Source: Eledone cirrhosa (Eukaryota). From it: 64,000 nt of DNA. The position numbers were made by a program, and so were the translations under genes. Numbering within the stretch: position 1 is the stretch's first letter; the number at the start of each line of letters is the position of its first letter. The notes beneath the pieces were generated by a model that ran no database searches, was not told where the DNA came from, and saw only the letters and a list, made by a program, of their open reading frames with translations. Positions 24,561 through 52,141 of this stretch are shown one piece after another. The stretch is from contig OZ024743.1 in NCBI GenBank assembly GCA_964016885.1, positions 354,206,001 to 354,270,000 on the forward strand, written 5' to 3'.

Positions 24561-24745
24561 AGTGGTAGAACACTGGAAGGTAATATCCGTAGTGGTAGAG
24601 CACTTAGTCCATGGGACGAGTTAGGTTTAAATGGTTACACAACAGTTAGTTCACCATACCGAGAACAATTGTTTCACCTTAGCGGATCCGCTAAGGTGAA
24701 ACAATTGCTCTCGGTATGGTGAACTAACTGTTGTGAAACCAGACA
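24561..24745. mobile_element. Fold-back (hairpin) insertion carrying an HHR 3' half, between (TA)n tracts
   Basis: Arms ~24632-24741 centred on GGATCC (24684-24689). The left arm read outward gives GAAA-CAATTG-TT (stem III plus triplet); the right arm has one substitution. No CTGANGA. Confidence 0.65.
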
Positions 24746-24780
24746 TATATATATATATAAATATATATATATATATATGA

Positions 24781-26035
24781 ATGGAATAGAATGAAACGAA
24801 ATTTCATTTCTCACTCTTAGTACGGCAGTTACTTAAATGTAAGTATGTATGTATTTATACGTCCATACATATATGTATACAGATATACAGTAGTATGTAT
24901 ATATACATACATGCACACACATATATATGCACGTATCGGTTTACCGAACATTTATTATAATGCTCGGTTTGTTTGTAAACAAACAAACAGCCCGAATTAC
25001 GCCGTATAGTGTTCAGGCAACCACGTCACCTTTTTGTTCAACACTGACACAGGAACGATGTACTAGTTTCAAGCTTATTAGCTATCGTCAACATCGTATA
25101 CCTTCCTGCCAGATGGTTGAACGTCTGAAAGTATATACTTTCGTTATGCATATTAACGGCTGAGCAGCCTAATTTGCATATTGAATGAGTATAGTCGGCT
25201 GGGCGCACCGAAAACAATAAACGGAATAGAATGAAACGAAATTTCATTTCACTTTTAGTACTGCAGTTACTTAAATGTAAGTATGTATGTATTTATACGT
25301 CCATACATATATGTATACAGATATACAGTAGTATGTATATATATATATATATATATATATATACATGCACACACATATATATGCACGTATCGGTTTACCG
25401 AACATTTATTATAATGCTCGGTTTGTTTGTAAACAAACAAACAGCCCGAATTACGCCGTATAGTGTTCAGGCAACCACGTCCCCTTTTTGTTCAACACTG
25501 ACACAGGAACGATGTACTAGTTTCAAGCTTATTAGCTATCGTCAGCATCGTATACCTTCCTGCCAGATGGTTGAACGTCTGAAAGTATATACTTTCGTTA
25601 TGCATATTAACGGCTGAGCAGCCTAATTTGCATATCGAGTGAGTTTAGTCGGCCGGGCGCACCAAAAACGATAAATGGAATAGAATGAAACGAAATTTCA
25701 TTTCTCACTCTTAGTACGGCAGTTAGTTATCGTTTTCGGTGCGCCCGGCCGACTAAACTTACTCGATATGCAAATTAGGCTGCTCAGCCGTTAATATGCA
25801 TAAGGAAAGTATATACTTTCAGACGTTCAACCATCTGGCAGGAAGGTATAGATGCTGACGATAGCTAATAAGCTTGAAACTAGTACATCGTTCCTGTGTC
25901 AGTGTTGAACAAAAAGGTGACGTGGTTTCCTAAACACTGTACGGCGTAATTCAGGCTGTTTGTTTATATGTGTGTGCATGTATGTATATATATATACATA
26001 CTACTGTACGTCTGTATACATATATGTATGTACGT
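24781..26035. repeat. ~450-bp repeat family: two tandem copies, a partial third and an inverted copy
   Basis: 24781-25220 and 25221-25676 encode identical spurious ORFs; 25728-26035 is an inverted copy. A diverged relative lies at 58060-58562. Confidence 0.85.
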
Positions 26036-27066
26036 ATCTAAGGATAGTGTATGAAGATAATAATATAACCTACAATCTCACTTGGAGCTTACTGCCCAGA
26101 GCTAACTCTTACACGGGAGGACTCGGTTCCTGTAACTTATGCTCGGAGGAAACATTACAAATGTTGTTTTCGAAGGACCAACTCCTAAACAAGAAAGACG
26201 AACTGGTAACCGCATGCAAACACAGATTGCGTAGGATTTACCTCGCCCTCAAACCCCATAACGACCCGGATGGGTAGACAAGGGCTGATACCCCTCTCCC
26301 CCCACTTGCCGAATAAGTTAGGGGAAGCTCCAGCTCACATAGGTAGATGTATGTCTTTTCTTTTCCTCATTGTCGTCTTCTTCCCCCTGTCTCATCCTAT
26401 CACTTCATTCCACCCCAATTTCTTTCCTCATCTGCTTTTCCCATTTCGCCTACCCCGATGCAGCCCATCGGGCATCTGTAGCATCAGTATCCCCATCCCT
26501 GTAATTTTAAGCAAGAATTGACCGAATAAGTTTTACTAACTACTTATAGCAGAGGTGTTAAACCCCTTTAATTTTGTATCAGTGTTGGTACTACTCAATT
26601 TCTACAAGTTTTTTCTATTCTCAACTTATTAACCTCTAATTGTAAGATAGCATTGTGATTTTTTTTATTCATTTCTCACTATCTAATTTTATATATTATT
26701 TTATTTCTTTCTATTATCTTTTATTGTCTCCTACGCTCATTCGATTTACCTATTCTATAACCTCCCTCCTCCACTTCATACACTATTCTTAGAATCTGCT
26801 GTATACATATCACTTTCAACGCTTGACCGCTCCACTCACTCCCCTATTGTTCTACAGGCAAGTTCAGCTACCCCTACCTTCCACCAAATGCCATGATAGA
26901 CTTATTTGTGTTTACACCAAATTTTAACCAATCGTCTTGACAGCTACAATCTTCCCATATAAGGAAGTACGGCTATTTATTCACCAGGCTAAACAAAATA
27001 AACATTCTAATTTAGTCCAGAAATAGCCGTCAAACTGGCTTGAGCTCTGCCGTCGGGGTCATACAA
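26036..27066 (+). mobile_element. Naiad-type PLE 3' fragment with a decayed terminal HHR
   Basis: ORF tail 'YNLTWSLL...CNLCSEE...LLNKKDELVTACKHR'. At 26970-27063 are stem II arms ACGGCTATTT/AAATAGCCGT followed by the same 3'-half sequence as the hairpins at 33 kb and 52 kb. Confidence 0.7.
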
Positions 27067-27929
27067 TATATATATATATATATATATATGTATATATGTA
27101 CATATATATGTACATATATATATATTATGGAATACTGATGGCTTCCTGCTACAATAATTTCAAAACTTTTCATTTATATATATATATATATATATATATA
27201 TATATATATATATATGTGTGTGTGTATATATATATATACGTACACACTTAAACAGTCTATGATGACATATACAATTTGACCGTGAGGTTATATCTGCACG
27301 TGAGTCTTACGGTCACTTAATACTTGTATAACACATAAATTGATGAGATTTTATCTGTATTTCAATAAATAAACAGTGCATATATATATATATATATATA
27401 TATATATATAATCATATATATTATTATATATGCATATATATAATTATATGCTTACACATTCAGATAGGTATATATATATATATATATATATATATATATA
27501 TATATTATACATATATATGATTATATGCATATATATAATTATATGCTCACACATTCAGATATGTATATATATATAAAATATATACATATACACACATATA
27601 CATATATGTATATGTATATATACATATCAGTATATAAATGCATACACACACGCACACATACATATATATAATACACACATAATATATATATATATATATA
27701 TATATTTGTCAAGAGCCATAACATATGGCTTTTATTGTTTTGACAATCTAATGGCAAAATGAAATTTGAAATATTGGTATATTATTACGTAAATTCTTCC
27801 CATATATTCTGTCACCTGCACGTCCCCTACCACTCTTCACAGCGTCCATCACTCCCACTGTCACCTCCACTTGCATATTCACCCCATCTCCCCTATGACG
27901 TGAACCTCGAACTCCACAAACACTTCTGC

Positions 27930-49350: not shown

Positions 49351-50769
49351 TAACTAAGTAAGTATTACTCTAGACGGTTAAAGAAAAGCAAAAATGACTT
49401 TAAAGCCGAGGAAAACAAAATGGCGTGTTCTGAAGATCGCCGAGTGAGGGAGTAAGTACCTGCTACATTCATCACGAAGCCACTACTGCCACCATCATGC
49501 ATCTGACGAGGACCACCACCATCACATGCCCCCCACAGCCCCCAGCCCCACCACATCCATTAACACCACCACCCATCTTACAACGTAAACTAAGATGTTA
49601 TCCGACATAAATTTTGACAATTTTACCAAAGATTTCCCGCCTTGCCAGTTAAGTTAGTTTGTAACGTCATAAAGTCTGAACGTGAGTCGTGTCGACATAT
49701 GCCATTTGCCGTCACTTCTATCTTTATTTCAAATGTTTCTAGCTAGTATATATGTGCGTTCATATGTATATATGTGTGTCTATGTGTTTGTCCCTGTGTG
49801 TGAGCGCTTGCTGGCGTATGTCTATCTGCATGGATGTGTATGTATATGTGTGTCTGTGTGTGTCTCTGTGTGTGTGTGTGTGTGTGTATGAGTGTGTAAT
49901 GGTCCTGTGCAGTTGTGATCGTCTGGTTAAGTATTCGTACGGAAATATTTTATGTTTGTAATATGTGCAAACAAATATACATACACAAATATATACATAC
50001 ATACATGAGTGCATCATGCATATAGTTACACATATTTAGACTGCCACTCATTTATGCATGCATGTATGTATATTTGTACATGAATGCATATATGTATGTA
50101 TATATATATATATATATATATATATATATATATATACTTGTATATATACATACACACCCACATATATATATATATATATATATGTATATATGTTATGTAT
50201 ATATATACATATAAATATATATATATATATATATATATATATATATATATATATATATATATATATATATATATATATATATATACACTCACACACGCAT
50301 ATATATATATATATATTATATATATGGACATGTACTTAAAAGATGTGCTTTGTGGTGTGAGAATGTTAAAGGGAGAAAGAGAGAGAGAAAAAGAGAAAGT
50401 AAAGAGAGAAACCGATGTGAACGAATAATGAATATGAGCAACGGCGTTTGAGTAAGACAGAGAGGGACAGAGGAAAAGTGAGCTAAAGGGAGGTATAGTG
50501 CGGAGGACGAAGTGAGAAGATGTTTCACCTGACACCATCTTGTTGACATAGCATATAAAAATGCCATGTCTTCACCTTACCCAATCGACATTTGATGTTC
50601 CACGTTTTGATGCATTTTTTTACTTACTTAATTCTTTTCCGCGCTGATGGTATTGGAATAAGACTATGAGATATTAGTGGCTGGTTAGTGTATGTACGGC
50701 TTGATTGCTTACATGTGTGTGTCGTTTGGTTTTATGTATGCTCTGACTGGTCTATATGTTGGTTTGTTA

Positions 50770-50990
50770 AGGCGGTGGATTGGCAGTGTTATTAGAGTGT
50801 CGGATGAAATGTCTCAAGATATTTGTTCTGATTCTCTGCGCCTTGAAATCAAATCATGCAACTGTTAATTATTCTTTTTATTCTTTCGCGGTGGATAAAT
50901 AAAATGCCTGTCTAAGGTGGTGGATTGGTGGAATTGATAGAGCATTCGGCCTGATAAACTACAATATCGTTTTCGGCTCTGTGTTCTAAA
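50770..50990 (+). mobile_element. Old, diverged SINE copies
   Basis: GGCGGTGGATTGGCAG head and a degenerate central domain. Confidence 0.5.
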
Positions 50991-51950
50991 TTTTTCCTCC
51001 GGCTTCACCGGTGCCAGGCTGTGTTGGCTCTTGACTTTCTCTTGGACTATATCTATTGTGTCGGTAATGCAAACTTTTTTTTATGAATTAGCAACTGCTA
51101 GTCCGTCACAAAAGACCTCATCCAGAACCGTTTCTTGGAGATGATCTTTCCATAGACTCCTGAAATATATGGATATTTATCAGTTTGTTGGCTACAACTA
51201 ACTAGGTGTACCTATCTGTCTTAGTTGGTGGAAGTGTAGTTTATTAGGTTATCCATGGGTTATGGGCTGTTTTTTCTATTTGTTGTATTTCTTATATATA
51301 TATATATATATATATATATATATATATATATATATATATATATATATATATATATATATATATATATATATGGGTGTGTATCTACACATATATTTATTGA
51401 TATACACACACTCACACACACGCGCGCACACACATATATATTATATATATATATATATATATATATATATATATATATATATATATATATATATATATAT
51501 ATATATATATATATATATAATATGTGTGTGTGTGTGTGTGAGTGTGTGTATATCAATAAATATATGTGTAGATACACGCCCACATACATCGAGCAACGAT
51601 GTTGATGATCATACTGTTACTCAACAAGTAAGTTGGACATAAAAAATAATTAACACATTTGATTATTCTGTCATAGCAATATCCCAATAAAATACATTTT
51701 GATAATCTAGCATTACTTAAAACAACATCATTTTAGTGGCTTTTGTCTTGGATGATTTTTTTCTTTTATTACAATGGTTTTCTTTCCTTTATGTTTTCAA
51801 ACTTAGCTTCACACTTCAAATGATCATTGGATATGAAAGCTTAGCTTTAAGTGTATACACATCGTCTTTTACAGTACTATATCGTGTTCAAAAATATGTT
51901 ATTTTAGTGCTGGTGTATATATATATATATATATATATATATATATATAT

Positions 51951-52141
51951 AACGAAGGAGTTGTGGTAAGGATCCAGATGGACCATAACGCACCAGAGTA
52001 GAGTGGGTAATAGGAGAAAGTATGACTCCGACGGCAGAGCTCAAGCCGTTCCGACGGCTATTTCTGGACTAAAGACTTTAGTCCAGAAATAGCCGTCGAA
52101 ACGGCTTGAGCTCTGCCGTCCGGGGTCATACTTTCTCCTAT
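51951..52141. mobile_element. Fold-back insertion carrying an HHR 3' half (same family as 32874-33073)
   Basis: Arms 52010-52141 centred near 52075; the arm reads GCCGTC-GAAA-CGGC-TTGAGCTCT-GCCG-TC. Shares the AACGAAGGA..TGTGGTAAGGA..GGACCATAACGCACCA long-arm extension. Confidence 0.8.

Follow-up and report, generated by a model that had tools for sequence, protein, structure and literature searches.

The window analysed here, a stretch of 64,000 nucleotides (nt) from Eledone cirrhosa (assembly GCA_964016885.1, contig OZ024743.1, positions 354,206,001 to 354,270,000), comes from a TA-rich genome of 3.0 Gb and contains four TA-flanked hairpins whose arms are 3' ends of Penelope-like elements (PLEs) with a hammerhead ribozyme or part of one. 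The analysis of these and related genomic copies showed that the hairpins are a real, abundant variant of a known structure, and that their inverted ends very probably represent two target-primed cDNAs (twin priming). In family A, to which three of the hairpins belong, the cDNAs stop at a sharp boundary in stem II of the ribozyme, and this boundary acts only on the first passage of the reverse transcriptase (RT). The clustering is strong but family-specific.

The four hairpins are present at the positions given by an earlier note, which was made from the letters alone, and they fall, as that note proposed, into two sequence groups. Group A gathers the hairpins at 33, 45 and 52 kb and a non-inverted copy at 27 kb, all lineages of one family, while group B is the 24.6-kb hairpin. 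Positions are numbered relative to G12, the G of GAAA, and the arms are as follows:

24562..24686, minus strand: family B tail arm, 3' end of a putative Hydra-clade PLE, its outer end being the tail start site
24684..24689, no strand: palindrome at the family B centre, where core A9 borders stem II
24687..24741, plus strand: family B short arm, with G12 at 24698
32875..33012, minus strand: subfamily A2 tail arm, last base -18
33014..33070, plus strand: subfamily A2 short arm, first base -17
45310..45429, minus strand: tail arm of an older A-related lineage, last base -2
45431..45491, plus strand: short arm of the same lineage, first base A(-18)
51952..52074, minus strand: family A tail arm, last base -22
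52076..52138, plus strand: family A short arm, first base -22 (or -23)

The self-inverted matches measured 110 nt at 96%, 122 nt at 98% and 133 nt at 95%, and 115 nt at 71% in the 45-kb hairpin. The tail and short arms end at -18 and -17 in the 33-kb hairpin, where a single additional base (33013) separates them, at -2 and -18 in the 45-kb hairpin, and at -22 and -22 in the 52-kb hairpin. The 45-kb short arm begins at A(-18) despite the differing sequence of its stem II strand. Inversion at stem II, as read earlier for all four hairpins, stands for family A and not for family B: the 24.6-kb arms, both ending at -14, carry the whole 2-bp stem II and are joined via a 6-bp palindrome, GGATCC, at the border of core and stem, outside stem II. 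The short arm ends at CCTAT where the long arm runs on, and the TAT microhomology with the target was borne out, the tail end lying at a parental TAT as well.

Genomic arms were sampled as the first pattern matches on contig 1 in genome order, blind to 5' structure. For family A, 99 stem-anchored arms (of 7,111) and 71 tail arms (of 2,738) were taken, for A2 30 tail arms (of 15,607), and for family B 74 core-anchored arms (of 4,339) and 50 tail arms (of 1,276); the samples include a few near-duplicate loci. The first genome search used the hairpin itself as the query, which biased it, and its loci were excluded from the counts. Position counts are based on ungapped mapping, as gapped extension shifted some -18 stops to -25, and some internal deletions to +17.

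Among the family A tail arms that reached -9, 38/50 stop between -9 and -25, the 17 bases of the stem II 3' strand, and 11/15 of the A2 tail arms stop in the same zone. The stop rate in family A is 4.5% per nt within the zone, compared with 0.2-0.6% before it, 0.7% just after it and 0.07-0.3% far upstream. In the ungapped mapping of 229 A arms, from loci chosen irrespective of structure, 202 stop between -9 and -24 and 23 beyond -35, with peaks at -18 (43 arms), -17 (32), -12 (30) and -14 (20), the main peak being the A of TTAGT. The lower helix (-3 to -11) is traversed nearly without stops; the stops climb towards -18 and then fall, which is the shape of a run-off, unlike a decay from the first contact with a helix. 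In a third lineage, whose stem II strand differs, most ends, judged by eye, likewise lie at the A of TTAGT, and the A(-18) edge is thus common to A, A2, this lineage and the 45-kb arm. The variable centres and arm lengths predicted earlier were found in the genomic copies of family A. The AG near -17 was rejected as a splice or trans-splice junction, since the arms ending at -18 have no common upstream sequence.

Hairpin centres that join two arms inside the zone number at least 14,194 genome-wide, while the reversed-control pattern gave 0, and chance is excluded as the source of the centre pattern. The arms of these pairs hold the final 60-140 bases of the element. In A2, 15,607 exact tail ends stand against 151 copies of the sequence immediately beyond the tail, which shows that the minimal form dominates.

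The second passage of stem II was sampled through copies chosen by the sequence just beyond the tail, which is present only where the RT entered the upstream pseudo-long terminal repeat (pLTR) through the open reading frame (ORF). In A2, 25/30 loci are long and 0/25 stop between +121 and -59 (16 independent insertions by our grouping; p = 6e-7 and 2e-5). In A, 17/30 loci have at least 600 nt of ORF downstream; five of them end before -9, and 0/12 of the others stop in the zone (p = 1e-6). The 5 (A2) and 13 (A) short loci were taken to be first-passage products of additional start sites and left out. Eight loci (L413, L430, L492, L494, L499, L511, L513 and L517) end about 25, 196, 215 or 270 nt beyond the tail, and such copies point to apparent minor RT start sites in the leader. 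As 0/37 second passages of A and A2 combined stop in the zone, stem II is not an intrinsic barrier, contrary to the earlier proposal that reverse transcription stops in the stem, and the sharp boundary acts on the first passage only. In other families, the RT mostly reads through longer and stronger stems as well (for example, 6/7 arms at -21.6 kcal/mol and 4/4 at -16.6 kcal/mol), in a 14-family comparison with small numbers and short references, in which some stop piles are reference ends.

The clustering in stem II, strong in family A, does not extend to family B and other families. Only 4/38 family B arms stop within stem II, while 21/34 stop at -12 to -55, at or upstream of the core, and the rate farther upstream is 0.1% per nt. 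The retrieved DNA contains 158 other TA-flanked hairpins; a recognisable whole ribozyme is present in 24, all but two of which have their centre upstream of the core. This count detects only hairpins with a whole ribozyme and shows existence, not frequency. At least 12 families besides A and B invert upstream of complete ribozymes, so the general role suggested for stem II in inverted PLE ends was not supported. The window provides an internal control:

45822..46389, no strand: inverted pair from a different family, each arm having a complete hammerhead

Its cores lie at 46167 (plus) and 46044 (minus), and its centre is far upstream of the core. Other PLE-like families contribute further nested inverted pairs, flanked by TA and with a core motif in each arm, at 24780-26040 and 45501-46600 of the window (core motifs at 25545-/25855+, 45662-/46541+ and 46044-/46167+).

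The explanation of the boundary that we favour, though tentatively, is that twin target-primed cDNAs run off the transcript's 5' end, predicted to lie at an initiator-like TTAGT inside stem II. The RT-endonuclease would cut both strands and prime once at each of two internal RNA sites (after Frangieh 2024). The A(-18) edge would then be the RNA 5' end, and the products would be dead-end "strong-stop" cDNAs from priming on the upstream pLTR copy, while long copies would derive from RNA that lacks an end there, whether circular, multimeric or read-through. The two cDNA 3' ends would be trimmed and joined blunt, via 1-5 nt of microhomology or with short inserts. The motif TTAGTYY matches what we take to be the initiator consensus, for which the literature search gave no citable paper. 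An unexplained G precedes A arms ending at A-18 or A-23 in 16/30 cases, compared with 11/80 elsewhere (p = 5e-5, post-hoc test), as the copying of a cap would give. In Drosophila virilis Penelope, transcription is described as starting inside the pLTR from an internal promoter (PMC2377424), and the circular templates suggested in PMC4209133 would agree with long tandems whose 5' ends are random.

Several results weigh against run-off at an RNA 5' end. The G excess was not replicated in A2 (1/12 vs 0/19). No full-length copy ends at -18 (0/37 passages), and run-off therefore needs an extra assumption, namely that the templates are circular or read-through. Within a single insertion, the two arms' stops showed no significant correlation in a permutation test, after which the impression that both arms stop at the same place was dropped. 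The second peak, G(-12), is not a pyrimidine-purine start, and family B has only a broad stop zone, -17 to -55. Moreover, TTAG is able to pair with an invariant CTAA in 6/6 aligned copies, so that sequence and structure are not cleanly separable; in the third lineage TTAG is unpaired in the minimum-energy fold. A search of sequencing runs yielded no RNA run from the organism.

A somewhat less probable explanation retains twin priming and takes the boundary as a first-pass block by the ribonucleoprotein (RNP), in which a dimer of the protein holds the folded pLTR, upper stem II included. Only the bound copy would block, and on the second passage the elongating RT would meet naked RNA. Telomerase, by analogy, uses a template boundary element. 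Such a block gives first-pass-only, position-specific behaviour for both arm types and directly accounts for the lack of long copies ending at -18 without extra assumptions. The maintenance of the lower helix by three compensatory double changes also fits it, as does the anole PLE ribozyme, reported to cleave only with protein present (PMC11167929). However, the stops start only past the 9-bp lower helix and peak at its far side, the RT mostly passes through the stronger stems of other families, the family B stops lie upstream of the entire ribozyme, and the G excess in A is left unexplained. The structural role of the ribozyme in integration that was suggested earlier survives only in this form, and not as a stem-driven fold-back.

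It is unlikely that the edge reflects cut RNA templates, with a nuclease or a labile U-A step opening the RNA at -19/-18 and the cDNAs running off; a minor class may run off the ribozyme's own cut at +23. The stops would have the same run-off shape, and about 11/180 family A arms end at +20 to +24, the predicted ribozyme cut, which is about three times the local rate (post hoc and weak, counted after by-eye removal of G-run indel artefacts) and gives a weak hint of cleaved templates in vivo. In most arms the RT passes the cleavage site, as had been proposed. No enzyme or signal for such cutting was identified, the extra G is not predicted, and the second-passage problem is the same as for run-off.

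The evidence for two cDNAs comes from the composition and nesting of the pairs. Most pairs join a tail arm to a short arm: 50/55 in the A tail sample (16 arms partnerless), 75/81 in the A stem sample (18 partnerless) and 38/46 in B (28 partnerless). The longer arm is about equally of either type (33 vs 28, with 25 ties). Among pairs with the short end found, to which the nesting counts are confined, the short arm extends beyond the tail arm by at least 10 nt in the 5' direction in 9/38, 6/18 and 13/23, and 12 (3+3+6) have no sequence in common between the arms. In the long pair L355 the short-end arm exceeds the other by at least 750 nt. Pairs whose arms show at least four differences make up 7% of 95, compared with 38% between insertions, and one clear chimera (L171) has arms of two lineages; the same-lineage arms are consistent with one RNA or one RNP. 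Junction gaps are mostly 0 to -5, plus a tail of inserts, and both outer ends are fixed and abut (TA)n, the parent having TAT at both sites. The earlier alternative of two cDNAs primed from both target ends fits the data.

Folding back of a single cDNA via stem II or a local palindrome, followed by self-priming of the second strand, is improbable. Some centres are palindromic, including the one at 24.6 kb and a recurrent near-palindromic join at -12/-16, and palindromes at inverted junctions have been described in rotifer PLEs, for which self-priming was proposed (PMC3846280). However, many pairs are not nested, which excludes fold-back for them, and neither the 12 pairs without shared sequence nor L355 and L171 agree with it. 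Most A arms (202/229) also end before the stem loop and the 5' strand, and the cDNA is therefore not self-complementary through the stem, against the earlier idea that this complementarity primes the second strand. Fold-back is thus refuted as the general route and could account for a minority of nested, palindromic centres.

A miniature inverted-repeat transposable element (MITE) amplified as DNA, or an assembly artefact, would agree with the fixed outer ends and TA flanks, a target-site duplication being indistinguishable within (TA)n, and is refuted by centres that are nearly all distinct (35/38, 18/18 and 23/23 pairs), by arms that are 3' ends of an RT-encoding element, and by strand switches in raw short reads from three further samples, where 12 of 14 listed switches lie at reference 1660-1667 (-19 to -12), with 13 more joints outside the listed 14 and fixed read ends biasing the set. 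In the RAD reads fixed starts and ends dominate, probably at restriction sites, so that depth and family B read mapping are uninformative on clustering.

The parent elements were judged by motifs to be Hydra-clade PLEs. The non-inverted copy of the window represents family A:

26056..27064, plus strand: non-inverted family A copy, with the GIY-YIG C-terminus to 26277, the 3' untranslated region (UTR), the hammerhead and the short end
26970..27031, plus strand: long stem II of this copy, with a lower 9-bp helix of 26970-26978 paired with 27021-27029

The TTAGT of this copy has A(-18) at 27014, stem I 5' strand and core are deleted from its hammerhead, and 20 nt of the element's own 3' UTR lie inverted at its 5' junction (26037-26056). 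Its frame is 86% identical over 74 residues to the C-terminus of a 784-codon parent. Long family A copies run upstream of the 3' UTR into the GIY-YIG frame, and 784-codon frames are numerous by protein search, some within 3,531-bp tandem units. The parent protein is a single ORF with RT followed by a C-terminal GIY-YIG, and the family B frame ends likewise by motif reading. The family A protein has RWR and DKT in place of DKG, and no GxKF was seen; in both families a CxCX5C linker and CxxC and CxH flanking conserved E and N are present, with no CCHH. The hammerhead in the pLTR and the (TA)n targets are present as in Hydra-clade PLEs, for which an RWK-type motif, DKT, no GxKF, the CxCX5C linker and GIY-YIG at the C-terminus are described (PMC8557442). 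A Pfam search with the family A and B proteins gave no match for either. The 27-kb relative is thus a non-inverted PLE end, as noted before, but not of Naiad, for which an N-terminal GIY-YIG, DKA and no canonical hammerhead are expected; the parent has a C-terminal endonuclease, DKT and a hammerhead. The 33-kb hairpin is a member of the young subfamily A2, which has intact 784-codon frames.

Family A parents carry a complete ribozyme with stem I, a TTGANAA core, a stem II of about 55 nt and a palindromic loop III. In the non-inverted A copies the core is TTGA(G/C/A/T)AA in 48/25/21/4 copies, with all four bases at N7; this is the U3-A8 variant described for PLE hammerheads (Cervera 2014, PMC4209133). 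The CTGANGA half is therefore not absent from the family, as had been stated, but held as a variant, and the 27-kb copy lost its core by deletion. Among six aligned copies, three compensatory pairs occur in the lower 9-bp helix, all from one divergent copy. The features of a type I hammerhead (core, three helices, free N7 and covarying stem II) are present. The family B core is canonical (CTGAGGA/CTGAAGA in 57/16 copies), with a stem II of 2 bp (-0.6 kcal/mol) and the triplet GUU. In an A2 unit (L351), complementary motifs at +49 to +57 and +138 to +146 flank the tail start site; a motif resembling this pair also occurs in the family B tail, and the pair is a candidate protein-binding stem. 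An Rfam scan of the window gave no hammerhead match, only sub-threshold miRNA-like matches, and half-ribozyme hairpins may accordingly be mis-annotated as MITEs or miRNA precursors.

A different PLE lies on the minus strand at 37992-41332; it has an open RT/GIY-YIG frame of 760 codons, matched by Pfam RVT_1 and GIY-YIG, a CxxxxCxxC linker that is Neptune-like by motif, and a 367-codon frame upstream; large inverted repeats are located nearby, at 41782-43734. Remnants of other Hydra-type PLE frames were found at 33173-33685 (plus), 54787-56667 (minus) and 18922-19380 (minus). In A2, seven leader pattern copies with a 299-bp period at G000:C2:356030050-356031876 are possibly a retrozyme-like tandem from the A2 pLTR, and another leader pair, 226 bp apart, lies at C3:139311049.

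It is doubtful, but worth stating, that family A may start transcription inside its own ribozyme, the 5' copy being the substrate half only. If so, cleavage of this half would require the enzyme half, located at the transcript's far end, to pair with it via the 9-bp stem II, and the far-end pairing would close the unit for circularisation. The tens of thousands of twin strong-stop hairpins would then be a fossil library of the element of the kind obtained by rapid amplification of 5' cDNA ends (5'-RACE). Alternatively, under the same doubt, the edge may be a template boundary resembling that of telomerase, in the group that is sister to TERT. The intact frames of A2 make the boundary accessible to the published in vitro system and to 5'-end sequencing, and the genome is a large natural data set that separates models of PLE inverted ends.

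How PLEs form tandem and inverted ends is a named open question (Craig 2021, PMC8557442), and truncated inverted copies with a tail on one side belong to the usual anatomy of PLEs in that paper and in Arkhipova 2013 (PMC3846280). The copies described there likewise have head-to-head 3' ends, microsatellite targets and short junction overlaps or palindromes. Here, in contrast, the minimal form dominates, the tail is about 78 nt rather than 30-40 nt, the junctions are concentrated within 17 nt, and only on the first passage, and twin priming is favoured over the self-priming proposed in 2013. In the anole Poseidon element PAc (Frangieh 2024, PMC11167929), two fixed 3' ends likewise define the tail and both strands are cut and extended, with a predicted dimer and uncleaved RNA as the template; its starts are reported as non-homologous, unlike the TAT microhomology found here, and the accessible text gives no cDNA stop mapping and no account of inverted pairs. 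The dual opposite-strand hammerheads 100-700 bp apart (PMC4209133) are also small inverted ribozyme pairs in truncated PLEs, with U3-A8 covariation and a palindromic loop III, and circular templates were proposed there for tandems. Family A pairs differ in being half ribozymes with a long stem II (~55 nt), and a ribozyme descriptor would miss them because they hold only half of the ribozyme. The accessible parts of a 2026 retrozyme preprint and of PMC13282606 do not treat these hairpins.

The literature search, which did not cover subscription papers and supplements, found no mapping of PLE inversion points or of a first-pass boundary, and the boundary is new within the literature searched. 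In LTR elements, strong-stop DNA is a short cDNA that runs off the RNA 5' end; unlike there, no strand transfer rescues the short cDNA here. Twin priming of L1 also yields two target-primed cDNAs joined at microhomology, one of them primed at the poly(A), with non-overlapping segments. Here both primers lie 78 nt apart, and therefore, unlike in L1, the arms overlap and form a hairpin.

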